Below, one piece after another: positions 6,090 through 32,029 of a DNA stretch of 64,000 bases; within the stretch, counting starts at the first letter, position 1, and each line of letters opens with the position of its first letter. Under the pieces are notes generated by a model. The model was not told the DNA's origin, ran no database searches, and saw only the letters and a program-made list of their open reading frames with translations. Location of the stretch: contig CAZJHT010000010.1 of assembly GCA_964546025.1 (NCBI GenBank), forward strand, positions 175-64,174. Direction: 5' to 3'. Source of the DNA: an uncultured Clostridiaceae bacterium (lineage in GTDB: Bacteria; Bacillota; UBA994; PWPR01). The position numbers and the translations under genes were made by a program.

Positions 6090-6704
6090 TTAATTCTTCT
6101 GACGCAAGTCACTGGGTAAAAGTTCCGATTCTTTACGCAATTTTTCAACTACTTTTAATCTTGCTCTATTTAGCCGTGATTTGACTGTACCTATTGATAC
6201 ATCCAATTCTTCACTGATTTCTTGATAGCTATAATCTTTCAACTCTCTTAAAATAATCACTTCTTTTTGATCTTCTTCAAGCTCTTCTATCGCCTTAATA
6301 AGAAAATATCTAAGCTCAGAAGCTGTTGCCATCTTTAATGGGTCTACTATTTCCGAATTATCTGGCAAAGCTATTTCTGTTTCTTCTTCATCGTTACTAT
6401 AGTATAAAGGGGTTGTTTTATGTTTTTTATGCTTTCTTAAGAAATCATAACAGGTGTTTGATACTATAGTGCACACCCATGTGCTAAATTTCGCATCTCT
6501 TCTAAATGAACCTAATGATTTATATGCTTTTATAAATGCCTCTTGTGTGGCGTCTGCAGCATCCTCACGATTTCGTAATATACGATAGGCTACATTAAAC
6601 ACCATTTTTTCATACTTAACTAGTAATTTCTCAAATGCATTAGTATCGCCATTAATGGCTTTTTCTACTAGCTCTCGATCTTCTTGTAAATCATCTTTTT
6701 TCAA
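6090..6704 (-). CDS. ECF (sigma-70 family) RNA polymerase sigma factor
   Basis: Region 2 (DATQEAFIKAYKSL, FSTW) and region 4 (YSYQEISEELDVSIGTVKSRLNRAR). TTG start after AGGAGGGG. Confidence 0.9.
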   Translation of the reverse strand: MKKDDLQEDRELVEKAINGDTNAFEKLLVKYEKMVFNVAYRILRNREDAADATQEAFIKAYKSLGSFRRDAKFSTWVCTIVSNTCYDFLRKHKKHKTTPLYYSNDEEETEIALPDNSEIVDPLKMATASELRYFLIKAIEELEEDQKEVIILRELKDYSYQEISEELDVSIGTVKSRLNRARLKVVEKLRKESELLPSDLRQKN

Positions 6705-13187: not shown

Positions 13188-14801
13188 TTATTTTCTATAC
13201 ACACACTCGCCACCTACATAAGTAGCAAGAACATTTAAGTCTTTAATTCTTTCTGCATCAATTTCCATGATATTTTCTGATAGAACAACAAAATCAGCAA
13301 GTTTATCAATTTCTAAAGATCCTTTGATATGCTCTTTTCTCTCTGCAAAAGCTGAGCCATTAGTAAATAAACCTACAGCTTCATAAGCAGTTAGTTTCTC
13401 ATCTGGCAAGAATCCTCCATCAGGATTACCATCAAGATCTGTTCTTGTCACTGCTGCTGCTAGTCCTAAAATTGGATTGCATGGTTCTACTGGCGAATCA
13501 GAGCCACCTGCAGTAGCAATACCCATTGTCCTCATTGTTTTCCACACATATGATTGCATCGTTCTTGCTTTTCCAAGTCTATCTTCAACAATTTTCATGT
13601 CTGTTGGTACAAAGATAGGCTGAATGTCACAAACTACACCTAGTTCTTTCATCTGCTCTAAGATATGCCAGTTTGTTATTTGAGCATGAATAATTCTAGG
13701 TCTTGCATCTTCCTCTTTTGCATTAGGAATAACCAATTTGAAAGCATTAAGAAGCTTTTGCATTGCAGCATCACCAATAGCGTGAGCTGATAATTGCATT
13801 TTCTTTTCATGTCCTTTTAAGTACATTTCGTTAATCTCATCTTGAGTCATAATTGACACACCACATGTAGTTGCATCATCTGTATAAGGTGCATGCATAT
13901 AGGCAGTTCTGCCTCCTAAAGAACCATCAGTCATTAATTTGAGAGGTCCATATGTAATAGTGTTTTCAGGGAACTGATATCTATCTCTTATTTCAAGATA
14001 CTTATCTATTTCACTTGGGTCAGACAATCTGATTTGATGATCCACTCTTAGTTTTAAACCGTTTTCAACTGCTTCTTGATAGGCTTTTAACTTTTCTTCC
14101 ATACTTCCATCTGGAGACCCTAAATCGTCAGATTGAACTGAAGTAAGACCATAAGATAGTGCTAGTTCTGCACCTTTTTCTATATGTCTGATATAATCTT
14201 CTTTTGTAAATTTGGGAATTAAGTTTGACACAAGTCCCATTGCTCTCTCTCTAAGAATCCCTGTTGGAAATCCATCTTCGCCGATATCTATATGTCCGCC
14301 AACTATTTGCTCCACAGGTGTTTTCATCAGCCCAGCAAGCTCTAAAGCTTTTGTGTTTGCTACACCTACATGTCCACAAGTCCTTCTTAAAAACATAGGT
14401 CTATCAATACTTACTTTATCTAAATCGTGCCTATCTGGCATAACTTGATCTTCAAACTTAGACTGATTCCACCCTCTGCCAAGAACCCATTCTACCTGCT
14501 CGTTCTCTGTTGAAAAATCTTGACACATCTTGATTAACTCATTTCTAGACTTAACTTCGTCTAACATAACTTGCTCAAGTGCCATGCCAATGCTCATTAG
14601 GTGCATATGACTGTCATTTAGTCCTGGAATAATAGTTTTTCCTTCAAGGTCTACTTTTTTAGTGTTATCGTTTACTAAAGCTAAAATGTCATCACTTGAA
14701 CCAATTGCTTTTATGATTCCATTATCTACCAATATAGCATTAGCTTCTTTGCCCTGTGCATCCATTGTGTATATTTTTCCATTAAAAAAAGCTGTTCTCA
14801 T
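13188..14801 (-). CDS. Metal-dependent amidohydrolase (Amidohydro_3 / YtcJ-like)
   Basis: HxH motif (PGLNDSHMHL), internal HAIGD and C-terminal GSD motifs. Start ambiguous: the ATG at 14801 (MRTAFFNGKIY) has AAAGGAG upstream, and the alternative ATG at 14825 has no RBS. Confidence 0.85.
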   Translation of the reverse strand: MRTAFFNGKIYTMDAQGKEANAILVDNGIIKAIGSSDDILALVNDNTKKVDLEGKTIIPGLNDSHMHLMSIGMALEQVMLDEVKSRNELIKMCQDFSTENEQVEWVLGRGWNQSKFEDQVMPDRHDLDKVSIDRPMFLRRTCGHVGVANTKALELAGLMKTPVEQIVGGHIDIGEDGFPTGILRERAMGLVSNLIPKFTKEDYIRHIEKGAELALSYGLTSVQSDDLGSPDGSMEEKLKAYQEAVENGLKLRVDHQIRLSDPSEIDKYLEIRDRYQFPENTITYGPLKLMTDGSLGGRTAYMHAPYTDDATTCGVSIMTQDEINEMYLKGHEKKMQLSAHAIGDAAMQKLLNAFKLVIPNAKEEDARPRIIHAQITNWHILEQMKELGVVCDIQPIFVPTDMKIVEDRLGKARTMQSYVWKTMRTMGIATAGGSDSPVEPCNPILGLAAAVTRTDLDGNPDGGFLPDEKLTAYEAVGLFTNGSAFAERKEHIKGSLEIDKLADFVVLSENIMEIDAERIKDLNVLATYVGGECVYRK

Positions 14802-14854
14802 AAACTTTTCATCTCCTTTTATCATCTAAAGTATATTTTAGCTCATATTCTAAG

Positions 14855-14889
14855 TTAAGAAAAGAGTAACCGCTTAGTTTAAGCGGTTA
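14855..14889 (-). terminator. Rho-independent terminator after the Cu-ATPase gene
   Basis: Minus strand reads TAACCGCTT-aaact-AAGCGGTTA followed by CTCTTTTCTT. Confidence 0.6.
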
Positions 14890-14893
14890 TTTC

Positions 14894-17359
14894 TTAATAT
14901 TTAGGTCTAATATTTGCTCTCTTTAGTAAGTTTGCATTACTCACAACTGTAATCGAGCTTGTAGCCATAGCTAGTTCTGCAATAGCAGGATGTAATAACC
15001 CCAATATAGCAATTGGTACAGCTACAAGGTTATATATAAAGGCCCAAAATAGATTTTGCTTTATCTTTCTAAATGTTGCCTTAGATAGTTTTATAGCACT
15101 TACAACTGCTGATAAATTACCTTGTACAAGGGTTACATCAGAAGCTTCTATTGCTATGTCTGTCCCTGTTCCTATCGCTATACCAACTTCTGCTTGGGTT
15201 AAAGCTGGAGCATCATTAATTCCATCTCCTACCATGGCTACTACTGTTCCTTCATTTTGTATTCTCTTAATCTCTAAAACTTTACCATCAGGCAATACCT
15301 CAGCAATAACTTCTTCAATTCCTGCTATTTTTGCTATAGCTTTTGCTGTTCTTTGATTATCTCCTGTTAACATTACAGTTTTAATGCCCATTTCTTGCAG
15401 TTCTTTAATTGCGTTTTTGGAATCATCTTTTATTGCATCTGCAACTGCTATCATTCCAACAAATGACCCATCTATAGCAACTGCTATTACAGTTTTTGCA
15501 TCTTCTTCTAATTGATTAAACTTTTCTACATCACTTACTTCTATATTGTTCTCATTCATCAACTTTATGCTTCCTACTAGGATTTCTTTGCTATCAGCAA
15601 ATCCCTTTATTCCTCTTCCCGTAAAGGTTTCAAACTTATCTAAATCAAACAAATCAAGATCATCATTAACTGCTTTTGTTATCACTGCTTTAGCTATAGG
15701 GTGCTCTGAGCCTCTTTCTGCACTTGCAGCATATCTCAAAAATTCTTCCTTTGATAAACCATTTGTGATTATATCAGTTACCTCAGGTTTGCCTTTTGTT
15801 ATTGTGCCGGTTTTATCAAATACTATAGTCTTAATTTCTTGAAGTTTCTGTATAGCAGCTCCGTCCCTAAAAATAATACCTGCTTGTGCACCCATTCCGC
15901 TACCGACCATTAAAGCTGTTGGTGTTGCTAGTCCTAATGCACATGGACATGCTATTACAAGTACTGCAACCATAGCATAAATTGCTTGCGCAAACCTATT
16001 AAGGTGACTCTGGAATGTCCATGGGAACACCCTAGATATTAAACTTACAATAGGAGAAGCTAATGCAGCCATTTGGTCTGGGAATACCGCCCATAATAAA
16101 AACGTTACTAAAGCTAAACCCATAACAATAGGTACAAAAACACTTGTTACTTTATCTGCAAATTCTTGTATAGGGACTTTCGTACCTTGTGCTTCTTCAA
16201 CCATCTTTATAACTTGCGATAAGAAAGTATCCTTACCTATTTTTGTAGCCTTTACATGGATCAATCCTTCTTGATTTACTGTTGCACCAATAACTTCCTC
16301 TCCAATTGACTTCCTAACTGGCATTGACTCTCCAGTAACCATAGATTCATCTATAGCACTTTCGCCAAAAACAATTTCTCCATCTGTTGGAATAGAGCTT
16401 CCTGGCTTAACTACTAAAGTATCTCCTATTTCTACTTCTTCTATTGCTATTTCAATTTCTTTACCATCTCTTATTACAAGAGCACTCTTTGCTCCTAATT
16501 CAAGTAATTTCTTAATTGCTTGCGATGCTCTTCCTCTAGCTTTAATTTCTACATACCTACCTGTTAAATGAAACGCCATTATCATTGCTGCTACTCCAGC
16601 AAAGTTAGGTAAATGCACAAAGAAATGCATTATTCCTGTAGAAAAAGCCGCTGCTGTTCCTAATGCTATCAAAGAGTCCATGTTTGGCACCTTATTGAGT
16701 ATTGCTTTAAATCCAGACACCATAGTAACTCTTCCTGGTCCTAATAAGGCGAAACTAGCTAATAATATCATGCCTATTTCATGATACTGTGGAAACGGCC
16801 ATCCATGTTCATACCCTAAAAACATTCCTGGTATCATCCACAGCATAGCTGGAATTGTTACAATCCATACTAGCCACATCTTTTTCTTAGCATCTTTTAT
16901 CATTTTTTCATCTTTATCTACTTCAACTTCATTTGTATCTAGTTCTATTTTATAACCAATCTTATCTACAGCATTTTTCATTTGACTTATGGTAACATTA
17001 TTATTATAACTTACTTTTAGCTTTTCTTGAGCTAAGCTTATAACAGCACTTTCAACGCCATCTATTTGCGAAAGAACTCTTTCGATGTTTTTAGCACATG
17101 ATGCTCAGGTCATTCCTGTTACATTAAAAGAGACTTTGTTTATTTCATCATCTACTTCTGGAGTATATCCAGCATCTTTAATCACTTGTTCCAAATCATC
17201 AATACCTAAGACTGTCTCATCGTAATCAATACTGGCAGTAAGTGTTGCTAAATTTACATTAGCTTGCTTAACTCCAGCTGTTTCAGATAAAACTTTCTCT
17301 ACTCTTGATGAACATGCTGCACAATGCATATCCTCCACTCTTATCTTTATTTTTGCCAT
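14894..17359 (-). CDS. copA: Copper-type P1B heavy-metal ATPase with two N-terminal HMA domains. One in-frame TGA (17105-17107) sits at the first Cys of the second CxxC motif, so it is a candidate selenoprotein.
   Basis: Track ORFs 17105..17359 and 14894..16981 are in the same frame (2466 nt = 822 codons). I translated the gap 16982-17104 and found no other stop. HMA1 is EDMHCAACSS and HMA2 is NVTGMT-TGA-ASCAKNIERVLSQIDGV. Core motifs are CPC (ACPCALGL), DKTGTIT, TGDN and GDGINDAP. Family call about 0.95; the Sec interpretation is lower. Confidence 0.85.
17069..17084 (-). promoter_or_regulatory. Candidate bacterial SECIS-like hairpin downstream of the copA UGA
   Basis: Minus strand reads CGAAAG-AGUU-CUUUCG, a 6-bp stem. 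The stem begins 20 nt after the UGA and the apical loop 26 nt after it. G is the second loop nucleotide. Confidence 0.45.
17105..17107 (-). other. In-frame UGA, candidate selenocysteine codon (UASC in place of CxxC)
   Basis: Plus-strand tca equals minus-strand TGA. It is flanked by ...GGA ATG ACC | TGA | GCA TCA TGT GCT... Confidence 0.6.
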
Positions 17360-17379
17360 AATCCCCTATCCTTTTCTTG

Positions 17380-19632
17380 CTATTTATTATCTTTTAACAA
17401 TCTCATACCATTTAGTATTACCACAAGAGCTGCTCCAGTATCAGCTAAAACTGCAATCCAAAGCGTTAACCATCCTGGGAAAACCATAAATATCGCAGCT
17501 AGTTTAACAACTAATGAAAATGCAATATTTTGCTTTATAATACTAATGGTTCTATTACTAAGTTTAATTGTATATGGCAGCTTATTTAAATCATCTGACA
17601 TTAAAACTATATCAGCAGTATCAAGCGCTGTATCTGTACCTGCTCCTCCCAAAGTAATACCAATATCAGCAAGCGCTAGTGCTGGTGCGTCATTAATTCC
17701 GTCACCAACCATAATGACTTTCTTATATGTATCTTGCAACTCTTTAACTACAACTAGCTTTTCATCAGGCAATAAATTAGCATAGAATTTATCAATCCCT
17801 AAGTTCTTACTAACAGTATTAGCACTATACTCATTATCGCCTGTTAACATAACTATGTTGTCTATTTTGTTTTCCTTTAGACTAACTATTGTTTCTTTTG
17901 ATTCTTCTCTTAGCGTATCTGATATAGTAATTGCCCCTAGCGATACCATATCTTTAATTACTACAACTATAGTTTGTCCGTTTTCATTTGCCTTTTTATA
18001 CGATTCTTTAATATTTTCTAAGTTAACGCCTAGCTCCTTTGCAAATGCTGGTTTTATTACAAGAACTTCAGATCCATCTATATATCCTTTTACTCCTTGG
18101 CCAGTCAATGATTCAAACTTTTCTGCTTTTAAATATTTTACGTTTTTCTCATTTGCATAAGCTAGTATCGCCTTAGCTAGTGGGTGTTCAGAAAAACTCT
18201 CTATGCTAGCTGCATACATGAGTGCCTGATAATCCGTTACATTAATAACTTTTGGCTTACCTATTGTTAAAGTTCCAGTTTTGTCAAATGCAATAGCTTC
18301 AGCTTTCCCAACACCTTCTATATGAGCACCGCCTTTAATTAAAATGCCATTTCTAGCAGCGTTGCCAAGGGCAGACACAATTGATACAGGTGTTGATATA
18401 ACTAAAGCACATGGGCAAGAAACAACTAATAGCGCTATGGCTCTATAAAACCATTCATGGAAGTTCCCACCCAAGAATACTGTGGGAATGAAAACGATAC
18501 TCACAGCTAACAAAATCACAATAGGAGTGTAATACCTAGCAAATGTATCAACAAACCTTTCTGAAGGAGCTTTTTGCCCCTGAGCTTCTTCTACAAGCTC
18601 AATAATTCTATCTAGTGTGGTGCTCCCACTTTCTTTTGTAACACGTACTTCTAAATATCCTTCTTCATTAATGGTCCCAGCATAAACTGTATCCTCCACC
18701 ATTTTATCTACAGGCATTGATTCACCTGTTATAGGTGCTTGATTAACACTAGACTCCCCTGATAAAACTATTCCATCAAGAGCTATCCTATTACCTGGTT
18801 TTATTACTAATATATCATTTATTTTTATCTCATCAACATTAAGTGTTACTTCTTTTCCATGCTTTTTAATAGTAGCCTTTGTTGGTGTAAGATCCATAAG
18901 ATTTCTAATAGACCTTCTTGTCTTATCCATTGAGTAAGATTCAAGTGACTTACCAATCCCAAATAATACTGCAACCATAGCTCCTTCACTATATTCACCA
19001 AGGTAAATCGCTCCTATAATTGCAATTATAAGTAAGACATTCATATCAAGAGGCATCTTATTAACTAAAGCATTAACTCCAGCCTTTGCTGGATAGTAGC
19101 CTGCTAACAATGTTGATAAAATCAACAAGCCATTGATTACTGGTGATGTCTCATAAATAGCCGACCCAATAAATGCTACAGCTAAAACTCCTGTAGCAAT
19201 CAATGTTAGTACTACTTTTAAATCCTGCCACCACTTAGTTTTTTCAAAGCTCACTTCTGTACTTTTTTCTATTTTATACCCAATTTTTTTTACCACTTGA
19301 ATTATTTCATCTGATTTTATATTATGACTAACCCTTAATACTGAAGTATTAAAGTTATACTCTGCAAACTCTACACCATCTATTTGAGCAACTGCTCTTT
19401 GTACCCCTTTGGCACACTCTGGTCAATCTACCCCTGAAACGTAAAACCTATCTTGATTTCTAGCTTTGATAGCTTCATCACTTAAGCCACCTTTAAATTC
19501 CACAACATTATCATTTGTGTGGCTATGATCATGTGAATGGTTTTTGCTGTGCTGGTGATCATGACTGTGATTATGATCATCATCACAATCACTACAACAT
19601 TGTTTTATTTCAACATCTTGACTATGGTCCAT
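17380..19632 (-). CDS. cadA: Cd/Zn/Co-type P1B heavy-metal ATPase with a His-rich N-terminus and one HMA domain. One in-frame TGA (19423-19425) sits at the first Cys of the CxxC motif, so it is a candidate selenoprotein.
   Basis: Track ORFs 19423..19632 and 17380..19296 are in the same frame (2253 nt = 751 codons). I translated the gap 19297-19422 and found no other stop. The N-terminus is CCSDCDDDHNHSHDHQHSKNHSHDHSH and the HMA is FYVSGVD-TGA-PECAKGVQRAVAQIDGV. Core motifs are CPC (SCPCALV), DKTGTLT, TGDN and GDGINDAP. Confidence 0.85.
19386..19397 (-). promoter_or_regulatory. Weak candidate SECIS-like hairpin downstream of the cadA UGA
   Basis: Minus strand reads GAGC-AGUU-GCUC, only 4 bp. 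The stem starts 25 nt after the UGA and the loop 29 nt after it. The loop is the same AGUU as in copA. An alternative hairpin GUGCC-AAAGG-GGUAC at 19401-19415 lies closer to the UGA. Confidence 0.3.
19423..19425 (-). other. In-frame UGA, candidate selenocysteine codon (UPEC in place of CxxC)
   Basis: Plus-strand tca equals minus-strand TGA. It is flanked by ...GGG GTA GAT | TGA | CCA GAG TGT GCC... Confidence 0.6.
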
Positions 19633-19646
19633 TTTCGTAACTCCTA

Positions 19647-19991
19647 TTAAATATGATTCAAGTGTTCTATTCCTTGCTTTATTATTGCCTCAACATGTTC
19701 ATCATCAAGAGAGTAATATACTCTTCTGCCTTCTTTTCTACTCTTTACAAGCCTTGACGCCCTTAAATATCGTAAGTGATGAGAAACATTTGATTGAGTA
19801 GTGTCTAGTATCTCAGATAGATTACACACACATAGCTCATTCAAGGATAAAGCATAAAGCAACTTTGCTCTTGTATCATCAGCCAGTGCTTTAAATAAAT
19901 CTGATAATCCATGTAACTGATCTACCTTTGGTTTAACTTCTTTTATAATCTCATCTTCTACAGATAAAACTTCACAAACTTCTGTTGTCAT
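19647..19991 (-). CDS. ArsR/SmtB-family metal-sensing repressor (CadC/CzrA-like)
   Basis: 114 aa. ELCVCNLSEILDTTQSNVSHHLRYLRASRLV is the family wHTH with the alpha3 Cys pair. Its stop lies 14 nt before the cadA start. Confidence 0.9.
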   Translation of the reverse strand: MTTEVCEVLSVEDEIIKEVKPKVDQLHGLSDLFKALADDTRAKLLYALSLNELCVCNLSEILDTTQSNVSHHLRYLRASRLVKSRKEGRRVYYSLDDEHVEAIIKQGIEHLNHI

Positions 19992-20006
19992 GTTCCACCA
20001 CCTCTG

Positions 20007-20032
20007 AATATATGATTACTTGTTCATATATT
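20007..20032. promoter_or_regulatory. Perfect 9-bp inverted repeat AATATATGA-N8-TCATATATT, candidate ArsR/SmtB operator
   Basis: Seen directly in the sequence. It lies immediately downstream of the predicted -10 of the arsR-cadA-copA promoter, and TGA...TCA half-sites are typical of ArsR-family operators. Confidence 0.5.
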
Positions 20033-20060
20033 ATTATATACCTCTGAGTTATAAAGTCAA
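20033..20060 (-). promoter_or_regulatory. Candidate sigma-A promoter (TTGACT-N16-TATAAT) of the arsR-cadA-copA operon
   Basis: Minus strand reads TTGACT (20060-20055), a 16-nt spacer, then TATAAT (20038-20033). Confidence 0.45.
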
Positions 20061-20061
20061 G

Positions 20062-20102
20062 AAAATAAAAGTAGCTTAACTGCCTTTAGTGGCAATTAAG
20101 CT
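20062..20102 (-). terminator. Rho-independent terminator after the RND gene
   Basis: Minus strand reads AGCTTAATTGCC-actaaa-GGCAGTTAAGCT (one mismatch) followed by ACTTTTATTTTC. Confidence 0.6.
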
Positions 20103-20112
20103 ATCATTATTT

Positions 20113-23100
20113 TCATGCTTCTTTTCTTATTTTACTTGCTAATTTATCTAGTAGTAAGTACATCGCTGGAATAAAAACTAGAGTTAAAAGTGTAGCTACT
20201 GTAATTCCAAAGATAACAGCTATGCCCATAGGAGCAAGTAACTCTCCTCCTTCTCCCAGTCCTAAACTTAGTGGTATTAAAGCTAAGGATGTAGTTAAAG
20301 TTGTTATCAGTATTGGCCTTAACCTTATTGGTCCAGCACTAATAATAGCTGTTTTTATATCTTCTCCAAAATCTCTTCGTCTAGTATTAATGTAATCCAC
20401 AAGTACAATTGCATCATTTACTACAATACCTGCTAAAATAATGGCTCCTATCATAGCGGGAACACTTAATCTATTTCCCGTTAAGAATAGACCCAAAGCT
20501 CCTCCAGAAAAGGAAAGCGGTACAGCAAACATTATAATAAATGGATGTAAGAACGATTCAAACTGACTGGCTAGTACCATATACACGAGTACTATACTTA
20601 GTGCTAGTGCTAATGTCAAATCATTAAGTGCATCTTGTAATTCTGTAAATTCTCCTCCTATACCATAACTATATCCTGGAGGAAAATGATACTCATCTAA
20701 TACCTTTTCAACATCTGCTGAGACACTTCCTAGATCTCGCTGGTATATCTGAGAGCTAACAGTTACTACTCTTTGTTGTGCCTCTCTATCAATTCTTCTA
20801 GGACCTTGAGCAAGCTCAATACTTGCTATTTGAGATAAAGGAATGATTGCTTCTGTTGGCGTATTAATCATTAAATTTGATAAGCTTGCAATTCCTTGAT
20901 TATAAATATCTTCACCTTTTATAACTACATTTATTTCGCTACCTTCATATTTATATCTAGTTACTGTTGACCCTGTCATTATTGTTCTTACTGTATTAGC
21001 CACTTGTGCTGTTGTCAGTCCATACTGGCTAGCCTGCAACCGATCAACTCTTACCTGAATTTCAGGAACACCGCTTGTAAATGAAGATGCAACCATCCTA
21101 GTGCCTTCTACTTGAGAAACAATATTAACTAGTTCACTACTAATTCTTTCAAGCTCATCAAGGTCATCTCCTCTAATAGAGATGCTAATTGGCGCGCCTC
21201 CCATTCCACCTCCTGCAAGAGATGCTGCTGACATGACACTAACGGATATATTAACACCTGGTATATCTCGCACCATATCTCTTACATTATCAGCTAAATC
21301 AGCACTTCTATAGTCTCTATCCATATCTGTCATAACATTAATTGAACTAGAGCCCTTACTTACATTAGAATAGACTGTCTTGATTCCATTGAGGGTCAAG
21401 ATTAAATCTTCAACTTCTTGTGTAACCTCCAATGTTCTCTCAACTGAGGTGCCTGAAGGCATCCTAACATTTACAGAAAACTGCCCTTGATCCACCTCTG
21501 GGAAAAACTCGGTTCCAACCAATAAAATTGAGCTCATTGATATAGCAAAAACTAATACTCCTGCTAAAACTGTCTTTCCTGGGTTATTAATTGCTGCTTT
21601 AAGTAAATTATTGTATTTTTCTCTCAAACTTCCAAGCATTTTGCCTAAAGTTGTTTCTTCTAGCTCTTTTTCTGTGTGGAAAGTATCAAGCAATTTAGAA
21701 GATAACATTGGTATTACAGTTAGTGAAACTGCAAGTGAGGCTAAAAGAGAAAGCGTTATTGTCAAGGCAAGTTCTCTAAATATCTCTGATGTTATTCCTT
21801 CTACAAAAACAATCGGAATAAAAACTGCTACTGTTGTTAGTGTTGAAGCTGTAACTGCCATAGCAACTTCACTAGCACCTTTAATAGCGGCATTTACTTT
21901 ATTTTCTCCACTTTCTCTAAATCTATATATGTTTTCAAGTACAACAATAGAGTTATCTACTAACATTCCTATTGCTAAAGCTAAGCCACCTAAGGTCATC
22001 AGATTTAGTGTTATATTTGCAAAATACAGTAGTACAAATGTAGCTATTACTGATACTGGTATGGCAATAGCTATAATCATTGTAGTTTTAATATTTCTAA
22101 AAAAGAATAATAAAACTAAAATTGCTAATATAGATCCTAAAATTCCGCTTTCAAGTAAATTATCAATAGATAACTCAATGAACTCTGCTTGATTTAGTAT
22201 GGGTTCGATCTCATATTGTGAGTATCGATTAGTAATCTCATCTAAGGCATCCATAACATTTCTTGCAACTCTAACTGTATTAGTACCAGACTGTTTACTT
22301 ACAGATATATCAAGACTTCGCTCTCCATTAGACCTTACTATGCTACTTGATTCAACTTCCACAAAATTAACCTGTGAGATGTCGCCAAGCCTAATAGACT
22401 CACCAGTCCTAAGCATAAATCTCAAATCTCTAATTTCACTAATACTAGTAAACTCACCAATTGTCCTGATGGTAAATTCTTGGTCACCTCTATTAACAAC
22501 TCCACCTGGAAGGTTCAAGTTTTCTGCACCAATCATGCCCATTAATGTGTCTATAGGTATTTGATAACTATGTAAAATCATAGGATCTACAATTATTTCT
22601 ACTTGTCTTGTATATCCTCCATTAACACTAACAGCTGCTACTCCATCAATTCTTTCCAATTGCGGGGACAATATTTCTTCTGCAAACAACTGAAGACTTA
22701 CCAAGTCATCAGTTCCTTTTAGAGATATCTGAACAATAGGCAATGCGTCTGGATCTATTTTTTGCACCACTGGTGCTGATACATCATCTGGGAAAAATGG
22801 CCTAATCATATCAATTCTTTCTCTTAGCTCTAGAGCAGCTTCTCCCATATCTGTACCAAAAGTAAACTCAGCTATTATTAGAGAATTTCCTTCAGATGAC
22901 CTTGATGAAATATTCTCTATTCCACTTATTGTGCCTACTCCTTGTTCTAGTGGCATAGTTACCAGAGACTCAATCTCTTGAGGTCCTACCCCTGGATAAC
23001 TTGTAGATATGACTACTATAGGGAACTCCAAGTTTGGTAATAAATCTATAGGTAGTCTACTAAGTGAAATGAAACCAATAAGTATTACTGCTAATGTTAC

Positions 23101-23148
23101 CATTAAAACTGTTATTGGACGTCTTACAGCTAGTTTCGGTAGTCCCAT
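20113..23148 (-). CDS. RND-family efflux permease (AcrB/HAE-type)
   Basis: About 1010 aa with 12 TM helices and two large loops, and a typical N-terminus AVRRPITVLM. Start trimmed to the ATG at 23148 (MGLPKL), which has GAGG 8 nt upstream. Its stop codon is TGA. Confidence 0.93.
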   Translation of the reverse strand: MGLPKLAVRRPITVLMVTLAVILIGFISLSRLPIDLLPNLEFPIVVISTSYPGVGPQEIESLVTMPLEQGVGTISGIENISSRSSEGNSLIIAEFTFGTDMGEAALELRERIDMIRPFFPDDVSAPVVQKIDPDALPIVQISLKGTDDLVSLQLFAEEILSPQLERIDGVAAVSVNGGYTRQVEIIVDPMILHSYQIPIDTLMGMIGAENLNLPGGVVNRGDQEFTIRTIGEFTSISEIRDLRFMLRTGESIRLGDISQVNFVEVESSSIVRSNGERSLDISVSKQSGTNTVRVARNVMDALDEITNRYSQYEIEPILNQAEFIELSIDNLLESGILGSILAILVLLFFFRNIKTTMIIAIAIPVSVIATFVLLYFANITLNLMTLGGLALAIGMLVDNSIVVLENIYRFRESGENKVNAAIKGASEVAMAVTASTLTTVAVFIPIVFVEGITSEIFRELALTITLSLLASLAVSLTVIPMLSSKLLDTFHTEKELEETTLGKMLGSLREKYNNLLKAAINNPGKTVLAGVLVFAISMSSILLVGTEFFPEVDQGQFSVNVRMPSGTSVERTLEVTQEVEDLILTLNGIKTVYSNVSKGSSSINVMTDMDRDYRSADLADNVRDMVRDIPGVNISVSVMSAASLAGGGMGGAPISISIRGDDLDELERISSELVNIVSQVEGTRMVASSFTSGVPEIQVRVDRLQASQYGLTTAQVANTVRTIMTGSTVTRYKYEGSEINVVIKGEDIYNQGIASLSNLMINTPTEAIIPLSQIASIELAQGPRRIDREAQQRVVTVSSQIYQRDLGSVSADVEKVLDEYHFPPGYSYGIGGEFTELQDALNDLTLALALSIVLVYMVLASQFESFLHPFIIMFAVPLSFSGGALGLFLTGNRLSVPAMIGAIILAGIVVNDAIVLVDYINTRRRDFGEDIKTAIISAGPIRLRPILITTLTTSLALIPLSLGLGEGGELLAPMGIAVIFGITVATLLTLVFIPAMYLLLDKLASKIRKEA

Positions 23149-23149
23149 C

Positions 23150-24253
23150 CTACTCACCTCTAATTACGCGAACTCGGTCACCTTCACTTAGGAAGCTTTG
23201 TCCAGATACAACTACTTCATCACCTTCATTTATACCTGATACTACTTCAATTATTGATCCATTATCAAGCCCTGTTTTAATTTCTACTACTACAGCTTTA
23301 TCGTCTTGTACTAAATATACAATTTCTCTATTATTTCTTATTAATACTGCTTGAGAAGGTATTACAATAGCGTCTTCTCTTGACTCAGTCACAATTTCAA
23401 CTTTTGCATGCATACCTGTTTTGATATCAGAGTCAACTTTCTCAAGAGTAATTTCAGCGCCATACATCAAGCTTGATGCTTCTATTGAGGACCCAATACT
23501 ACTTATTCTTCCCTCATGGTAATAGTCTATTGCTTGAATATTAACCCCAACCTCTTGTCCGACTACTAAATTATTAACCATATTTTCGGTTATATTTATA
23601 CCTATAAGTAACTCACTATCATCTAAAATCACCATTGCTGGCTGCGTATTAGTTGCAATAGATCCTTCTTCTAATACCAAGTTTGTAACAATACCGCTAC
23701 TTGGAGCTTTGATAGTTGTATCTCTATATGCATCACTTGCACTATCAAGTCCGACCTTTGCTTGTCTAACTGCTGACTCTGCTGCCTTTATGGGTTGGTC
23801 TGATGCAGATAGTCTTGCTTGGTCAAGCTGTGATTGACTTATTGCACCTGATTCATAAAGTACTTTTAGTTTTTCATAGTTTTCTTTAGCAGCTTCTACT
23901 TGTTCTTTGGTCATTTCATAATTTGCTTTTGCACTATCATATGCTGCTTGCGCTTGCTCCAACTGTCTAGCACTGTTTGTACCAACAAGAGTGAATAAGT
24001 TTTGGCCAGAACTAACTTTATCACCATTTTCTACAAACAACCTTGCTACTTCTCCTGGCATTTGTATAATTACTGGGATTGTTTTTATTGGTCTTACTCT
24101 CCCTGTAAATGTTGTTATAAATTCAATACTATCTGTTTTAGCATCAATTACTTCAACAGGTGTATATATCTCTTGTTCTTCAACTTCTTCTTGTTGTGAA
24201 CACCCTATTAAAATAAAGATCAATATTAGTAACATAGCCAATACTTTTTTCAT
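23150..24253 (-). CDS. RND periplasmic adaptor (membrane-fusion) lipoprotein
   Basis: Lipobox LIGC after a signal peptide, then coiled-coil, lipoyl-like and beta-barrel regions. Start trimmed to MKKVLAML (ATG at 24253). Confidence 0.9.
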   Translation of the reverse strand: MKKVLAMLLILIFILIGCSQQEEVEEQEIYTPVEVIDAKTDSIEFITTFTGRVRPIKTIPVIIQMPGEVARLFVENGDKVSSGQNLFTLVGTNSARQLEQAQAAYDSAKANYEMTKEQVEAAKENYEKLKVLYESGAISQSQLDQARLSASDQPIKAAESAVRQAKVGLDSASDAYRDTTIKAPSSGIVTNLVLEEGSIATNTQPAMVILDDSELLIGINITENMVNNLVVGQEVGVNIQAIDYYHEGRISSIGSSIEASSLMYGAEITLEKVDSDIKTGMHAKVEIVTESREDAIVIPSQAVLIRNNREIVYLVQDDKAVVVEIKTGLDNGSIIEVVSGINEGDEVVVSGQSFLSEGDRVRVIRGE

Positions 24254-24384
24254 TGCCATTCCCCTTAATGATTCAAACTGTTCACTACTCATTCATAATA
24301 CATCATTTTACAACATAAAAAGAGTATTGAATATGTTTTTTCTCTTTTTTTTACATATCCTACACACATCTTAACTTTTAAACG

Positions 24385-24431: not shown

Positions 24432-24893
24432 CTAAATAACTCCAGTTGCTCTAAGTAACACTTCTGCAATTACTGCTGATCCTACAAATGTTCCTGTAAA
24501 TACTAAAAGAGCTATTACAATAATCTTTGGACCAAGTTTTGCAAAAGAACCAATATCTTTACCGATTGAAATACCAGCATATGCTAGGATTGGCGTACAA
24601 AGAGCAAGGAACTGAACTTTTGATGTATGCTCTAAGAAAAACGCACTTCCTGGTGTCCATGGTAAACTCAAAATTATACCTGTTAAAGATATGTATGCGA
24701 TTGCAGGTAATTTAACTGGTACAAGGTTCTTTAGAGTTAACCCTATTACAACTACACCAAGTAGAATTAAAACACCTAAGACAGCTTGCAATGGGTTTAC
24801 TGGATTACCAGCTCTATATGTAAATATCCAGTTACCTATTAATGTTATTACACTTGAAATTAAAAGAATTCTTACTTGCTTTGCTAATTCCAT
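24432..24893 (-). CDS. Small polytopic membrane protein (about 4-5 TM), function unknown
   Basis: 153 aa and hydrophobic throughout. TAATG overlap with the upstream membrane-protein gene suggests translational coupling. Confidence 0.6.
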   Translation of the reverse strand: MELAKQVRILLISSVITLIGNWIFTYRAGNPVNPLQAVLGVLILLGVVVIGLTLKNLVPVKLPAIAYISLTGIILSLPWTPGSAFFLEHTSKVQFLALCTPILAYAGISIGKDIGSFAKLGPKIIVIALLVFTGTFVGSAVIAEVLLRATGVI

Positions 24894-25690
24894 TATGCTG
24901 CCTCCTCTGCTTTCTTAGCTTTTCTTCCCTTAACTATTTCATACAGCTTATTGGTCATTGGTAATCCAACAAATAGTGAAGCATATAAACCTGTTGCACT
25001 AGTTAGTAGATTACTTGCAGCCGCAAAAGCTATTATTTCTGTTTCCATCGCAGGGAAAGTTGCAGCCAAAGCCCCTGATGAAGCTGACATCATGGATGCA
25101 CTTCCCGTACCACACGCCATCGCCAGTGCATATGGGTGAAGTGGTAGAATTGATGGTAAAAATCCTGCCATTAAACCAAAATAGATAGCACCAAATAAAG
25201 TACCACAGATGTAAACTCCCATTACACCTTGTCCTTCTGGGGTGTCTAAGCCATATACATCACCAATAATAGCAAGTGAACCTTCACGTGCTATAGAGAA
25301 TGTTGCACCAATTGCTTCTCTATCTAAGCCAAGTAACACAGCTACTGGTAACGCAAAGAATATTGTTCCAAAGTTACCTAACTCTTGTAAAACAAGTGGT
25401 AGTCCAGATGAAGCAATAACTTCGATATTAGGACCAATGTTAAATCCCATTTTAGCCGTAAGCATCAATACTGTAATACCAATATAAGTTGACGCTAAAC
25501 TCATTTCCTCTTCATTAACAATTTTTAGGAACTTTGGTCCTAAAAACATACCGATAATAAGTGCATAAAGCATAGGTAATAGCAACGCAGTTCCTGGGCC
25601 TACTTGGAAAGATCTTAATCCTATAAACTCAGAAATAACTACTAAGACAAATGCAATTATATGCAATTTAAAGTCTTTAATTTTTTCCAT
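24893..25690 (-). CDS. Polytopic membrane protein, probably DUF3100-type (uncharacterised putative transporter)
   Basis: 265 aa with about 8 TM helices and Gly/Ala-rich helices (ACGTGSASMMSASSGALAA). The family name is from memory, not from a search. Confidence 0.55.
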   Translation of the reverse strand: MEKIKDFKLHIIAFVLVVISEFIGLRSFQVGPGTALLLPMLYALIIGMFLGPKFLKIVNEEEMSLASTYIGITVLMLTAKMGFNIGPNIEVIASSGLPLVLQELGNFGTIFFALPVAVLLGLDREAIGATFSIAREGSLAIIGDVYGLDTPEGQGVMGVYICGTLFGAIYFGLMAGFLPSILPLHPYALAMACGTGSASMMSASSGALAATFPAMETEIIAFAAASNLLTSATGLYASLFVGLPMTNKLYEIVKGRKAKKAEEAA

Positions 25691-25716: not shown

Positions 25717-27027
25717 CTAATTATTTGTTAAATCTCGCCACATTTTTAAATATTCATCTTTTGACATAACTTGCTCATAATTACTAGCTACTTCTTTAGC
25801 TTTTGAAGCATTATCAAATAGTAAGTCTATCACAGTCATAGCCATACATTTTGCTGGAACTACATAAGCAGCTACTTCATCAGCAATTTTATAGTCTCTT
25901 GTATGAGCAGTACCTGAAATACCACCTGTATAAGGATGAATTGATGGTACTATATGACTAACATCTCCCATGTCAGTTGAACCACCAATTTTTTCAGCAA
26001 TGTAAACATTGTCTTCTCCAACAACTTGATTAGCATTATCTCTAAATAATTCTGTCATAATCTCTTCTTGAATCATCGGCAAATATCCTGGGATTTCAGT
26101 AATCTCTACCTTAGCCCCTACAGAAATTGCTCCGCCTTTTAGCGCATTATTAACTTTACTATTAGCATCGATAATTGCATCTAAGTTGCTTCCTCTAACA
26201 TATGTTTCAAGTTTCACTTCAGATGGGACTATATTTACTAAATCTCCACCTTTAGTAATGATAGGATGAACTCTTATTGCATCATTATCTCTAAATGTTT
26301 CTCGATTAGCATGAATACCCATAAGTCCTAGCATAGCTGCATTAAGAGCATTAACTCCTTCATGAGGTGATCCACCTGCATGTGCTTCTTTTCCTAGATA
26401 TTTTACAGTTTTACCAATAAATCCATTACTACCTCCACCAACAAATACACTTTTATCAGGGGATGATGAATTACTATGGATCATCATAGCTACATCAACA
26501 TCATCAAATTCTCCAAACTTAATGAGTTCTTGCTTACCTCCCATAAACTCAATCTCACCATCTGCTTGTAGCCTCTGACGATACTCTAACTCTACAAACT
26601 CTTCAGCTGGTACAGCAATAAGCTTGACTATACCATCTAAGTGCTCCATTACTTTACTTTCTGACAAACCGATTGTCACACCAAGCAAAGCTGCAATCAT
26701 AGCATTATGTCCACATGCATGAACTGCACCTGTTTCTTTATCAGCATCTGGATGTTCATAACAAAGCACAGCATCAAGCTCACCAAGTACTGCTACTTTT
26801 GCTTCGTTGCTTTTACCAGCTAACTCTCCAATTACGCCAGTTCTTGCAACTTCTGAACGATAACTAACACTATACTTATCAAAAGTATCTTTTACTAATT
26901 GAGCAGTTTTAAATTCTTTATAGCCAAGTTCAGGGTTTTCCCAAATTTGTCTGCCAATAGCAATAATCTCTTCTTGATTAGTATCGATTGCTTCAAGTAC
27001 TAATTTTTTTAGTTCTTGTTTATTCAC
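25717..27027 (-). CDS. M20D-family amidohydrolase (aminoacylase / AbgB-like)
   Basis: Metal-ligand motif HACGHN and M20 dimerisation-domain topology. Start trimmed to the GTG at 27027 (VNKQELKK), with AGGAGG 7 nt upstream. Confidence 0.85.
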   Translation of the reverse strand: MNKQELKKLVLEAIDTNQEEIIAIGRQIWENPELGYKEFKTAQLVKDTFDKYSVSYRSEVARTGVIGELAGKSNEAKVAVLGELDAVLCYEHPDADKETGAVHACGHNAMIAALLGVTIGLSESKVMEHLDGIVKLIAVPAEEFVELEYRQRLQADGEIEFMGGKQELIKFGEFDDVDVAMMIHSNSSSPDKSVFVGGGSNGFIGKTVKYLGKEAHAGGSPHEGVNALNAAMLGLMGIHANRETFRDNDAIRVHPIITKGGDLVNIVPSEVKLETYVRGSNLDAIIDANSKVNNALKGGAISVGAKVEITEIPGYLPMIQEEIMTELFRDNANQVVGEDNVYIAEKIGGSTDMGDVSHIVPSIHPYTGGISGTAHTRDYKIADEVAAYVVPAKCMAMTVIDLLFDNASKAKEVASNYEQVMSKDEYLKMWRDLTNN

Positions 27028-27081
27028 TACAGCACCTCCTTTTTTTATTTCACACTTATTATACACTTTTTTAACAAAAAG

Positions 27082-27120
27082 TTAAGAGTATACAGTATAT
27101 ATAGTACAGTACACTCTTAA
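27082..27120 (-). terminator. 12-bp inverted repeat (one mismatch) with a U-rich tail, either a terminator or an operator between two hydrolase genes
   Basis: Minus strand reads TTAAGAGTGTAC-N15-GTATACTCTTAA followed by CTTTTTGTT. A TATAAT at 27063-27058 follows, so this may also be a promoter/operator region for the M20D unit. Confidence 0.5.
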
Positions 27121-27183
27121 TTGTATGATATATTATTCATTTTACTTCGTATTTATAGGTGAAAATACATTAATTACTAATTT

Positions 27184-28830
27184 TTATGCAATATATACGA
27201 TTTCACCATCAAAAATCGTCATTTTAACTTTAAGATCTTTTATTTCTTCATCCTCTATTGCTGTTATATCTCTATCTAAAACAGCTATATCAGCTAGCAT
27301 TCCAGGGACTAATTTACCCTTAATATCTTCTTCAAAGCTTAAATATGCACCATTAGTAGTCATCATTTTAAGAGCCTCAAATATAGACACTTTTTCCCTC
27401 TCTCCTGCTTGATGACCTAATGCTCCTTTTCTAGTAACAGCACTATAGAGGTTATAAAATGGATTAAAATGAGCTGAAGGCATATCTGTACTAATTGCAA
27501 CTTTTATATCATTCTTCAAATAAGTTTTTGTCGGTGTGAAGTCTGCTTGTTTTTCTTTTGACATTAGATTGTCATACCCTGAAGCTTCCCCATAAATAAA
27601 AGCTGGTTGAATTGCAGCTATAATTTTGGCTTCTCTCATCATTTGTAGTGCTTTTTCTGTTGGATAGTATCCGTGTATAATCTGATGCCGTCTATCTTCT
27701 GGATTTGCTTTATATGCTTTATATATAGCCTTTACTGCTAGTTCTTGTGACTCATCACCCACAACGTGAATACCTACTCCCCATCCTGCATCATGAGCAG
27801 TTTTAACATACTCATCTAACTTTTTTAAGTCTAGTCGAAAAGGTATGTCTTTCCTAACACTATCTTCACCTAAATATGGCCACGATAAATAAGCTGTCTT
27901 TGAAGTTAGCCCTCCATCGATAGCCATTTTTAAACCACCTAGCCTTAGCATGTTATCCCCAAAATTAGTATAAAAACCTAGCTCTGATATCAACCTTTCT
28001 ATTTTATCTACTTCTTGCTTTATATGAAAACCATACCAGTTTGGCATTAGTGTAGTTCGTACTTTTAACTCCTCGTTTTGATAAAGATTTTGATACGCAC
28101 GCATAATAGCAGGAGTGACACCGGGCTCAATTATACCTGTAATTCCGTATTTTAAATACTCTTGATGTGCTAGCTTAATTGCTCTTTCAGTTCCTTGATT
28201 AATTCCAATTTTATCTGCTCCAAATGGCCCTGGCATTGCATCTCTAACAAGCTGTTTAGCTTCTCTGAATAATAAACCTGTTGGTTCTCCATTTTCATCT
28301 CTATCAATCACACCATCTTTAGGATCTTTAGTGTTTTTATCAATTCCTGCAAGTTCTAAAGCTTTTGAATTAGCTACACAGGTTGAAAATATTCTTTCTA
28401 AAACAACAGGATGGTTTTTTGATACTTGATCTATATCATGCTTTGTAGGCATTCTTTGCTCTCTAAACTGTGTTTCATTCCAACCCCCTCCCTGAAGCCA
28501 TTCTCCATGAGGTAAATTACTTAATTTACTGCTAATTTTTTTTCTTAACTCTTCAAAATCTTTAATCCCAAAAGTAACTAATCCTTCTATAAAACGCCCT
28601 GCTTCCCATGCATGATTATGAGTATCAATTATGCCAGGAATTACAGATTTTCCTTCAAGATCAAACTTTTTAGTCGCTTCACCACATATGCTCAATATCT
28701 CTTTATTAGTGCCAACTGCCATTACCTTGTTATCCAGAATAGCAATTGCATCAACCATTTCATCATTATTCATAGTATGGACTTTTCCATTTAGCAATGC
28801 AATTTGTGGTCTTAAATTAATATGTTTCAA
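27184..28830 (-). CDS. Metal-dependent amidohydrolase (Amidohydro_3 / YtcJ-like), paralogue of 13188..14801
   Basis: HxH motif (PGIIDTHNHA) and VHVVGDES. 548 aa. TTG start after AAGGGGG. Confidence 0.85.
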   Translation of the reverse strand: MKHINLRPQIALLNGKVHTMNNDEMVDAIAILDNKVMAVGTNKEILSICGEATKKFDLEGKSVIPGIIDTHNHAWEAGRFIEGLVTFGIKDFEELRKKISSKLSNLPHGEWLQGGGWNETQFREQRMPTKHDIDQVSKNHPVVLERIFSTCVANSKALELAGIDKNTKDPKDGVIDRDENGEPTGLLFREAKQLVRDAMPGPFGADKIGINQGTERAIKLAHQEYLKYGITGIIEPGVTPAIMRAYQNLYQNEELKVRTTLMPNWYGFHIKQEVDKIERLISELGFYTNFGDNMLRLGGLKMAIDGGLTSKTAYLSWPYLGEDSVRKDIPFRLDLKKLDEYVKTAHDAGWGVGIHVVGDESQELAVKAIYKAYKANPEDRRHQIIHGYYPTEKALQMMREAKIIAAIQPAFIYGEASGYDNLMSKEKQADFTPTKTYLKNDIKVAISTDMPSAHFNPFYNLYSAVTRKGALGHQAGEREKVSIFEALKMMTTNGAYLSFEEDIKGKLVPGMLADIAVLDRDITAIEDEEIKDLKVKMTIFDGEIVYIA

Positions 28831-28852
28831 AAATTAACCCCCTTATTTAACT

Positions 28853-28885
28853 ATAGCCACAAAAGTGTTTAGCTTTTGTGGCTAT
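28853..28885. other. 13-bp perfect intergenic hairpin without a proper U-tract on the transcribed (minus) strand
   Basis: ATAGCCACAAAAG-tgtttag-CTTTTGTGGCTAT. On the minus strand it is followed by AGTTAAATAAGG, so it is more likely an mRNA processing or stability element than an efficient terminator. Confidence 0.4.
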
Positions 28886-28892
28886 CTATTTG

Positions 28893-30083: not shown

Positions 30084-30142
30084 TAGTACCCTCCTAATAT
30101 TTGAGTCTATATAATTAATTCGACAAGCTAAAGATAATTCCT

Positions 30143-30679
30143 TTATTTAATCTGCTCATATTCACTTTTGAGGACAGAATAACATAAATCATCATGAATT
30201 GTTCCATCATATATTTTTGTTGCCATTCTCAAAGTTCCTTCGTATTTAAAGCCTAGCTTTTCGATTACTCTTTGAGACTGCTTGTTAAATGGATAATGAT
30301 AAACAGTTATGATTTTTACACATCGATCTTCAAATAAATGTCTTATCACTTCTTTGCCTGCTTCAACTATAATGCCTTGTCCCCAATAATCTTCGTGAAG
30401 AACATATCCAAGTGCAAAAACATTTTCTATCCTTCTTTTACTGTCTGGGTGTATTCCAAAAGACCCTATGACCTTTTTATCTTCTTTATGATAAATTGCA
30501 TAAACTTCATCACCTTTAATAAAGGAGTCAAAGATTTTCCTAGACTCTTCCTCTGATTCATGGGGCTTCCAGCCAGCCATGGGTCCCACCTTTTTGCTTT
30601 TACCTAAATCATAAAAATCATTAAAGTCTTCTTCAACATATTGCCTTAATATCAACCTACTTGTAACTAGTTGCTTCAT
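30143..30679 (-). CDS. GNAT-family N-acetyltransferase (RimJ/RimL-like)
   Basis: 178 aa. N-terminal RLILRQ, WGQGI and a Q-R-V-x-E-K-x-GF acetyl-CoA motif. ATGA overlap with the MFS gene. Confidence 0.88.
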   Translation of the reverse strand: MKQLVTSRLILRQYVEEDFNDFYDLGKSKKVGPMAGWKPHESEEESRKIFDSFIKGDEVYAIYHKEDKKVIGSFGIHPDSKRRIENVFALGYVLHEDYWGQGIIVEAGKEVIRHLFEDRCVKIITVYHYPFNKQSQRVIEKLGFKYEGTLRMATKIYDGTIHDDLCYSVLKSEYEQIK

Positions 30680-31860: not shown

Positions 31861-31888
31861 AACAATACTCCTTTCGTTAGTTTTATAT

Positions 31889-31937
31889 ACAAAAATAAAG
31901 CCCAAAGGACGATATTAAGACTCGTCCTTTGGGCTTT
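31889..31937 (-). terminator. Intrinsic terminator forming the riboswitch expression platform
   Basis: Minus strand reads AAAGCCCAAAGGACG-agtcttaatat-CGTCCTTTGGGCTTT followed by ATTTTT, a 15-bp stem ending about 30 nt before the MFS start. Confidence 0.7.
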
Positions 31938-32022: not shown

Positions 32023-32029
32023 GCATGAT

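Follow-up and report, generated by a model that had tools for sequence, protein, structure and literature searches.

P-type ATPases that carry selenocysteine (Sec) in a UxxC motif have been catalogued as a predicted selenoprotein family since 2007–2008 (PMC1976440, PMC2398784, PMC5029168, PMC13188914), and both the Olavius symbiont study (PMC1976440) and the GOS study (PMC2398784) cover this family. A survey of >5,200 genomes published in 2016 counted 32 such genes in 25 organisms (PMC5029168), so that some genomes contain more than one of them, and a review from 2026 gives the family as TIGR01525 with ABB15669.1 as an example (PMC13188914). Here we analysed a stretch of 64,000 nucleotides (64 kb; hereafter the window) of the metagenome contig CAZJHT010000010.1, derived from an uncultured Clostridiaceae bacterium, in which an arsR gene is followed by a cadA-like and a copA-like P1B-type ATPase gene. 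These genes very probably constitute a metal-inducible efflux operon of three genes, both pumps of which became selenoproteins by separate Cys-to-Sec conversions. Like the known Sec P1B ATPases, which occur mainly in anaerobes and are known from sequence alone, the two predicted pumps have Sec as the first residue of UxxC, aligned to the CxxC of Cys-containing homologues. They differ from the known family in that a P1B-2 and a P1B-1 Sec pump lie side by side in one ArsR operon, that only the second HMA domain (HMA2) of the Cu pump has been converted, and that selU is embedded in the operons of some relatives. These three features appear to be modestly new. The locus reveals no new kind of system, and its novelty was overrated in the preliminary description of this DNA, because UxxC Sec P-type ATPases had already been catalogued.

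Sec is also found in small proteins with an HMA fold, namely the NF041115 UxxU protein and Sec-containing MerP/MerT (PMC2398784, PMC13188914, bioRxiv 10.1101/2022.07.06.499078). What they share with the present pumps is a ferredoxin-like HMA domain in which Sec, within the GMxCxxC loop, is a metal ligand, whereas here that domain is joined to a pump, the motif reads UxxC instead of UxxU, and the match to NF041115 remains under the cut-off. HMA2 of the copA-like protein (window 17134–16940) scored 86.8 bits on this model, which is named 'UxxU metal-binding (seleno)protein', just under its cut-off of 95. This result suggests a kinship of HMA2 with stand-alone HMA selenoproteins.

When Cys was substituted at the TGA, both pumps matched the HMA, E1-E2_ATPase and Hydrolase domains of Pfam, with one HMA domain in the cadA-like and two in the copA-like protein. 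The cadA-like protein begins with a His/Cys-rich leader (amino acids [aa] 1–41, with 10 His and 3 Cys) and contains CPC406, DKTGT450, N702x7K (N702IAFSLVVK) and D731xGx7N (D731TGAALVVILN). Its best subfamily score was obtained with TIGR01512 (528 bits; cut-off 313.5); it also passed TIGR01525 (617 bits; cut-off 346) and remained under the cut-offs of the ZntA equivalogs (640 versus 1005 and 541 versus 1240). The copA-like protein contains CPC471, DKTGT515, N769x6YNx4P (N769LFWAFIYNLVAVP) and M798xxSSx5N (M798ATSSITVVSN), passed TIGR01511 (569 bits; cut-off 397) and TIGR01525 (626 bits; cut-off 346), and fell under the cut-off of the CopA equivalog NF007952 (607 bits; cut-off 1316). In the Arguello classification, P1B-1 ATPases are defined by CPC, Nx6YNx4P and Mx2SSx5[N/S], and P1B-2 ATPases by CPC, Nx7K and DxGx7N. 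The first pump, with its His/Cys-rich leader, its CPC/Nx7K/DxGx7N signature and its best score on TIGR01512, is therefore classified as a P1B-2 ATPase of the Zn/Cd/Pb type, and the second, with the CPC/Nx6YNx4P/MxxSSx5N signature and a passing TIGR01511 score, as a P1B-1 ATPase of the Cu(I) type. The motifs and the TIGR01512 and TIGR01511 scores thus confirm what the preliminary description had proposed, namely a His-rich Cd/Zn-like and a two-HMA Cu-like pump of different P1B subtypes.

Each ATPase frame is open over its whole length (750 and 821 codons) except for one TGA, and no frameshifts were found. The UGA had been described as occupying the homologous motif position in both pumps, and this is correct, because it replaces the first Cys of an HMA CxxC each time. 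In the copA-like protein, HMA1 has Cys-x-x-Cys and HMA2 the predicted Sec-x-x-Cys. Both proteins combine the P1B core of the known family (TIGR01525, DKTGT and CPC) with a conserved UGA aligned to the first Cys of CxxC.

To examine related loci, DNA was fetched behind protein-search hits, and the codons at the two sites were read from loci L011–L017 and L019–L021. At the cadA-like site, a TGA was present at the identical codon in nine sequences (the window, L011, L012, L013, L015, L016, L017, L020 and L021), and L014 has the Cys codon TGT. At the HMA2 site of the copA-like gene, the TGA was found at the identical codon in seven (the window, L011, L012, L013, L014, L016 and L020), and a Cys codon in L019, the product of which is 59% identical and full length. 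In L014, copA has retained its TGA while cadA has TGT. The UGA-bearing set is diverse, with full-length proteins down to 54–63% identical and heavily diverged synonymous sites (proportion of synonymous differences [pS], 0.61–0.66). The alternation of UGA and Cys in related genomes, regarded in the preliminary description as informative for Sec usage, is thus seen in L014 cadA and L019 copA, and the random disruptions that it had set against such usage were not seen, the TGA standing at the identical codon across lineages. The window ArsR protein is identical on 15 contigs, and three contigs from other sequencing samples (L001–L003) contain the same two TGAs, which are therefore not an assembly error.

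The results of the protein searches are those expected of unrecognised Sec genes. The closest relatives of the copA-like protein (63–76% identity) are called as proteins of 695–728 aa without an HMA domain, whereas all matches with ≤59% identity are full length (about 820 aa) and have HMA domains. The same split was observed for the cadA-like protein: its closest relatives are short and lack HMA, and those with about 46–50% identity are full length with HMA. A search of metagenome contigs with the HMA-region alignment yielded one further locus, L021, which also has UGA, and a search of genome contigs with the cadA-like protein returned only unrelated P-type ATPases (23–25% identity). L020 was at first sight a candidate for an all-Cys operon, its genes being called full length, but this was rejected because both sites are TGA and the gene caller had written Trp. 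In the public record of L020 (876–5626; P0124 and its neighbour), Trp stands at both Sec codons, and other annotation pipelines split the Sec pump genes or call them 'partial', so that the selenoproteins are hidden. L013 contains a second in-frame TGA (6300–6302) in the His/Cys-rich leader of its cadA-like gene (HTDGST-TGA-TGDHSH), 45 codons 5' of the conserved Sec codon. The stretch after this TGA folds at -4.9 kcal/mol, weaker than 195 of 200 shuffles, and has no SECIS-like hairpin; the TGA may be a real stop that bounds a 90-aa His/Cys-rich protein, or an error.

Downstream of each UGA lies a candidate Sec insertion sequence (SECIS) hairpin. The shared AGUU apical loop at a similar distance from the UGA, a claim of the preliminary description, was recovered at 29 nt in cadA and 26 nt in copA. 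The published consensus for bacterial SECIS elements comprises a loop of 3–9 nt, an upper stem of 4–16 bp, a UGA-to-loop distance of 16–37 nt, a G in loop position 1 or 2 that is usually followed by G/U, and a minimum free energy of ≤ -7.5 kcal/mol (PMC13188914). Both hairpins have a 4-nt loop, borne on a stem of 4 bp in cadA, the shortest that the consensus permits, and of 6 bp in copA. The loops AGUU, GGUC and GGUU carry G-U at positions 2–3, and the GGUCC loop of a shifted hairpin in L017 opens with G followed by G/U; all three distances (29 nt, 26 nt and, for L017, 25 nt) are within the range. The 48-nt stretches starting from the UGA have folding energies of -12.4 and -8.8 kcal/mol and the hairpins alone -5.3 and -5.1 kcal/mol, so that ≤ -7.5 kcal/mol is reached only by the 48-nt span. 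In stem, loop and spacing, both predicted hairpins fit the consensus (PMC13188914). Among the 17,834 codons in the long open reading frames (ORFs) of the window, a hairpin with an N-G-[G/U]-N tetraloop at 16–37 nt follows 1.5% of codons if a 4-bp Watson-Crick stem is sufficient and 1.0% if at least 6 bp are required.

The copA hairpin is supported by covariation. In an alignment of six sequences, 36 of the 36 cells of the 6-bp stem are paired; the closing pair is U-A, A-U or C-G, and an inner pair changes from A-U to G-C by coordinated synonymous changes (GAA...CUU to GAG...CUC). The compensatory changes at these two pairs use synonymous or conservative codon choices. Only 2 of 500 shuffles reached the covariation score, and slid registers paired at 33–75%. 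No hairpin was found at the homologous place of the Cys-type copA HMA2 of L019. The 4-bp core of the cadA hairpin is kept in six of the seven UGA sequences of alignment A1 and also in L020, and its stem is longer in L013 and L015 (5–7 bp). In L017, the core is disrupted and the shifted hairpin, GCAAC-GGUCC-GUUGC, is present instead, while in the Cys-form cadA of L014 the stem is broken. It is the compensatory synonymous changes, together with the hairpin's absence from the Cys forms, that argue for a constraint on the RNA. A second cadA hairpin further upstream (GUGUGCC...GGUACA) was not counted as part of the element because its register shifts between lineages.

Among the alternative explanations, the least improbable is a natural split of both genes at UGAs that act as true stops, giving a 69-aa His-rich peptide, an 84-aa CopZ-like HMA1 protein and, from internal starts, HMA-less pumps, with no role for selenium. 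Gene callers do yield exactly such pieces in every assembly, N-terminally shortened P1B ATPases are known to keep transport activity, E. coli copA reportedly also yields an HMA1-only chaperone (Meydan 2017; Drees 2017), and no gene of the Sec machinery was seen in the window and the fetched loci. However, the remainder of the HMA domain is encoded by the 40–42 codons from each UGA to the first possible restart, and these codons evolve under purifying selection, with ratios of nonsynonymous to synonymous differences (pN/pS) of 0.35 and 0.47 at a pS of 0.61–0.66 and with the residues of the HMA fold retained. The restarts chosen by gene callers differ between lineages (called lengths, 638–685 aa for cadA and 695–728 aa for copA), and no Shine-Dalgarno sequence precedes the internal starts in the window. 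Nor would simple splitting be expected to fall exactly at the first ligand Cys of two unrelated HMA domains and to be accompanied by a hairpin that co-evolves and is gone in the Cys forms. The purifying selection past the UGA, the shifting restarts and the missing Shine-Dalgarno sequences therefore disfavour genuinely split genes, which we consider very improbable.

It is very improbable that the UGA is read through without selenium, by a near-cognate Trp or Cys tRNA or under an altered genetic code, with the hairpins merely stimulating the read-through. This idea draws on a public gene call for L020 in which TGA was rendered as Trp (W at the site in P0124) and on the lack of Sec machinery genes in the window and the fetched loci. 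However, the code is the standard one: TGA is an ordinary stop that ends 6 of the 43 long ORFs of the window, and no other gene with a convincing in-frame TGA is present in its 64 kb, which excludes a reassigned genetic code. No other convincing TGA-interrupted ORF or selenoprotein candidate was found in a scan of the window and the fetched loci. A pair of ORFs at window 24436–24918 (plus strand; 59 and 100 aa), joined by a TGA at 24613, is antisense to a 153-aa ORF (24432–24893) and most likely represents a spurious shadow frame rather than a selenoprotein. In addition, the UGA site aligns only with Cys in the homologues, the signature of a Sec/Cys pair, and the hairpins, in which the G-U of the loop never varies, agree with the SECIS consensus of the SelB type (PMC13188914).

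Linkage to selU in relatives is a further point against read-through without selenium. In L013, L014 and L015, the selU/mnmH gene, which encodes tRNA 2-selenouridine synthase, lies within the arsR-cadA(Sec) operon or directly behind it (379–380 bits on NF008750; cut-off 241). SelU requires selenophosphate and is thus SelD-dependent, so that these three lineages have selenium metabolism; among the loci analysed, this is the one indirect indication of Sec machinery. L015 is the complete genome of a cultured strain, Clostridium sp. 'deep sea' (CP063353.1); a literature search on this genome found nothing. The window operon itself is without selU. In L014 (3713–3871) and L015 (12183–12341), a 52-aa DUF1540 gene with no NCBIfam match lies between cadA and selU.

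The view that nonsense mutations have turned both genes into pseudogenes, or that the TGAs are sequencing or assembly errors, has in its favour that each gene is interrupted once and that pipelines call fragments or 'partial' genes, but it has effectively been refuted by the comparative data, because the same TGAs recur in the contigs of several samples and in about ten diverged lineages, no more stops or frameshifts occur in the 750 and 821 codons, the catalytic and transmembrane motifs are all intact, and the codons before and after the TGA alike are under purifying selection. Thus, the conserved UGA, the alternation with Cys, the hairpin tied to the UGA and the purifying selection past it lend strong support to the argument of the preliminary description for selected Sec usage instead of two nonsense mutations.

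Several points weigh against the Sec interpretation. The cadA hairpin of the window has only 4 bp (-5.3 kcal/mol alone) and shows no covariation, and the fold z-scores of the single sequences are unremarkable (-1.95 and -0.24). Because the hairpins overlap a conserved encoded helix (RAVAQ and ERVLS), their conservation is partly protein-driven. None of selA, selB, selC and selD was seen in the metagenome-contig window and the fetched loci; ARAGORN found no tRNA genes in the window and 12 of the fetched loci, Rfam gave no matches in the window, and an NCBIfam scan of 15 ORFs elsewhere in the window detected no selenium-metabolism gene. We know of no P-type ATPase in which Sec has been confirmed in the protein itself, and the functional effect of Sec in the HMA loop is one that we purely infer. 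Nevertheless, the decoding of both UGAs as Sec is a well-supported prediction and, in our judgement, probable.

The two predicted Sec sites arose independently. HMA2 of the window copA and the HMA domain of cadA are 44% identical, and a copy of the cadA Sec-HMA as the source of the copA Sec-HMA2 was considered. When both were ranked against 480 HMA domains from the search hits, however, copA HMA2 was placed among the Cys-type CopA domains and cadA HMA among the Cys-type CadA domains. The copy was therefore rejected, each domain going with its own pump type, and the ranking shows two separate Cys-to-Sec conversions.

The three genes are all on the minus strand, and the features of the locus are summarised in Table 1. 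Their spacing of 14 and 20 nt with no promoter or terminator in between, as first described, was confirmed: the interior of the operon has 18 promoter matches versus 23.6 expected, which is the background level, and one weak 5-bp terminator-like site. The bracketing of the genes by a promoter/operator (20060–20007) and a terminator (14889–14867) also proved correct. By these sequence features, arsR and the two pump genes make up a single predicted transcription unit with an autoregulated ArsR-type repressor.

Table 1. Features of the arsR-cadA-copA locus in the window and positions of selU in related loci
Feature	Sequence	Position	Strand	Description
Sigma-70-type promoter	Window	20033–20060	Minus	-35 box TTGACT (20060–20055), 16-nt spacer, -10 box TATAAT (20038–20033); 11/12, top match of the region
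Candidate ArsR operator	Window	20007–20032	Minus	Perfect 9-8-9 inverted repeat AATATATGA-N8-TCATATATT, directly 3' of the -10 box
arsR	Window	19647–19991	Minus	ArsR/SmtB-family metalloregulator, 114 aa
cadA-like P1B-2 (Zn/Cd/Pb-type) ATPase gene	Window	17380–19632	Minus	750 codons including one predicted Sec codon
In-frame UGA of cadA-like gene	Window	19423–19425	Minus	Codon 70, GVD-U-PEC; predicted selenocysteine
Candidate SECIS hairpin of cadA-like gene	Window	19386–19397	Minus	GAGC-AGUU-GCUC; loop begins 29 nt past the UGA
copA-like P1B-1 (Cu(I)/Ag(I)-type) ATPase gene	Window	14894–17359	Minus	821 codons including one predicted Sec codon
In-frame UGA of copA-like gene	Window	17105–17107	Minus	Codon 85, GMT-U-ASC, in HMA2; predicted selenocysteine
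Candidate SECIS hairpin of copA-like gene	Window	17069–17084	Minus	CGAAAG-AGUU-CUUUCG; loop begins 26 nt past the UGA
Intrinsic-terminator-like hairpin ending the operon	Window	14867–14889	Minus	T-rich tail after a 10-bp stem
Terminator-like hairpin closing the RND/MFP efflux genes upstream	Window	20072–20103	Minus	13-bp stem followed by a T run; upstream operon boundary
selU	L013	8647–9693
selU	L014	4072–5112
selU	L015	12526–13575

The product of arsR matched Pfam HTH_5 (PF01022; 60 bits, cut-off 22) and NF033788 (104.8 bits, cut-off 55). It has an alpha5-type site, D97-x-H99-x10-H110-x2-H113 (D97-E-H99 ... H110-L-N-H113), which is invariant in nine orthologues, and an alpha3N-type site composed of Cys6 and C54-V-C56. 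Most orthologues keep CVC, and in L014, L015 and L017 both CVC and the N-terminal Cys have been lost (alignment A3). Two of these three CVC-less lineages, L015 and L017, are also without the copper pump. These data hint that the Cys site may have a role in Cu(I)/Cd sensing. A TTGACA/TATAAT promoter is located at the same place 5' of arsR in L011, L012, L013, L015, L016 and L020, and the operator core ATATGA(A/G)...TCATAT was found in all relatives examined except L014. In L015, the repeat is longer and reaches 12-2-12 with a single mismatch (AATATATGAACA / TATTCATATATT). From these features, we infer that ArsR binds to the inverted repeat at 20007–20032.

The arrangement resembles those of the CadC, SmtB and BxmR repressors (cadCA of S. 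aureus pI258 and BxmR-bxa1 of Oscillatoria brevis), in which a winged-helix repressor is encoded first, the inverted-repeat operator overlaps the promoter, and the repressor has alpha3N Cys and alpha5 His/Asp sites. It differs from them in that one repressor gene here precedes pumps for both divalent and monovalent metals. The placing of a Cu pump under an ArsR-type regulator had been called unusual; such a combination is indeed rare, but it is not without precedent, because the ArsR-family protein BxmR controls a Cu(I) pump (PMC3817396). The Cys-type copA relative in L019 adjoins csoR and copZ instead of arsR. Within the locus, copA is a variable insert, since it is missing from L015 and L017, in which arsR and cadA(Sec) are both present. 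The relatives share a synteny of M20 peptidase, amidohydrolase, RND/MFP, arsR, pumps, amidohydrolase, MarR and two ABC genes.

In the window, genes for an RND permease of 1014 aa and for the membrane-fusion protein that partners it (MFP; 380 aa) lie immediately upstream (20113–24292, minus strand), with a terminator between them and the operon. The synteny of this pair is kept in L011–L016, and it matched generic multidrug/heavy-metal RND models only below cut-off. Many M20-family peptidases/deacylases, amidohydrolases and peptidase T are encoded at 25717–35018 and 13188–14825. This peptidase- and amidohydrolase-rich neighbourhood suggests an anaerobe that ferments peptides or amino acids.

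We propose the following model for the function of the operon. In the absence of metal, the ArsR/SmtB repressor would occupy the inverted repeat beside the -10 box, and metal binding would free it, allowing one transcript to be made over all three genes. The UGA of each pump gene would then be decoded as Sec by SelB and tRNA-Sec, recruited by the hairpin with its N-G-U-N loop 26–29 nt downstream, as the hairpin data given above support. Sec would thereby come to occupy the first, solvent-exposed Cys position of the CxxC loop in the sole HMA domain of the Zn/Cd pump and in the membrane-proximal HMA2 of the Cu pump. Compared with a thiolate, a selenolate is softer, and at neutral pH it is fully ionised. 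Sec in the HMA domain would probably lead to tighter binding or to faster capture and exchange of soft metals and, as a consequence, to an altered set-point of pump activation, while the transport site would be unchanged. Because N-terminal HMA domains are cytosolic regulatory sensors that trade metal with chaperones (PMC3817396), the earlier idea that Sec lies at the metal entry site of the pumps was not borne out.

It is conceivable, if rather unlikely, that the Sec codons also serve as selenium-gated switches with two outputs, termination giving the 84-aa CopZ-like HMA1 chaperone or the 69-aa His-rich peptide and Sec insertion giving the full pump. Sec insertion in bacteria is usually incomplete, and therefore both the 84-aa HMA1 protein and the 69-aa peptide would be expected as termination products. 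A related case is E. coli copA, from which, in work ascribed to Meydan et al. and Drees et al. (both 2017; listed in PMC7558416), the pump and an HMA1-only chaperone, CopA(Z), are reportedly produced by programmed frameshifting. In both genes a recoding signal is located just past HMA1, and termination at the UGA would here free the 84-aa HMA1 protein; no copZ gene is present in the window operon. The signal differs, however, in being a Sec codon with a candidate SECIS hairpin instead of a slippery site, and the function of the product is speculative. If such a switch existed, the ratio of chaperone to pump would be set by the selenium supply, in a selenium analogue of the CopA/CopA(Z) frameshift, and, with selU embedded alongside, soft-metal efflux would be tied to selenium status.

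To our knowledge, no Sec-containing metal pump has been studied experimentally. The locus provides a natural comparison set, in which a Zn/Cd pump and a Cu pump appear to have independently swapped the same ligand Cys for Sec. The set also includes a Cys-type HMA1 beside a predicted Sec-type HMA2 in one protein, a close Cys relative (the cadA gene of L014) and a cultured relative. Finally, the annotation of predicted Sec pumps as split genes, as 'partial' genes or as proteins with Trp at the Sec codon would mean that metal-resistance inventories of anaerobes undercount intact pumps.

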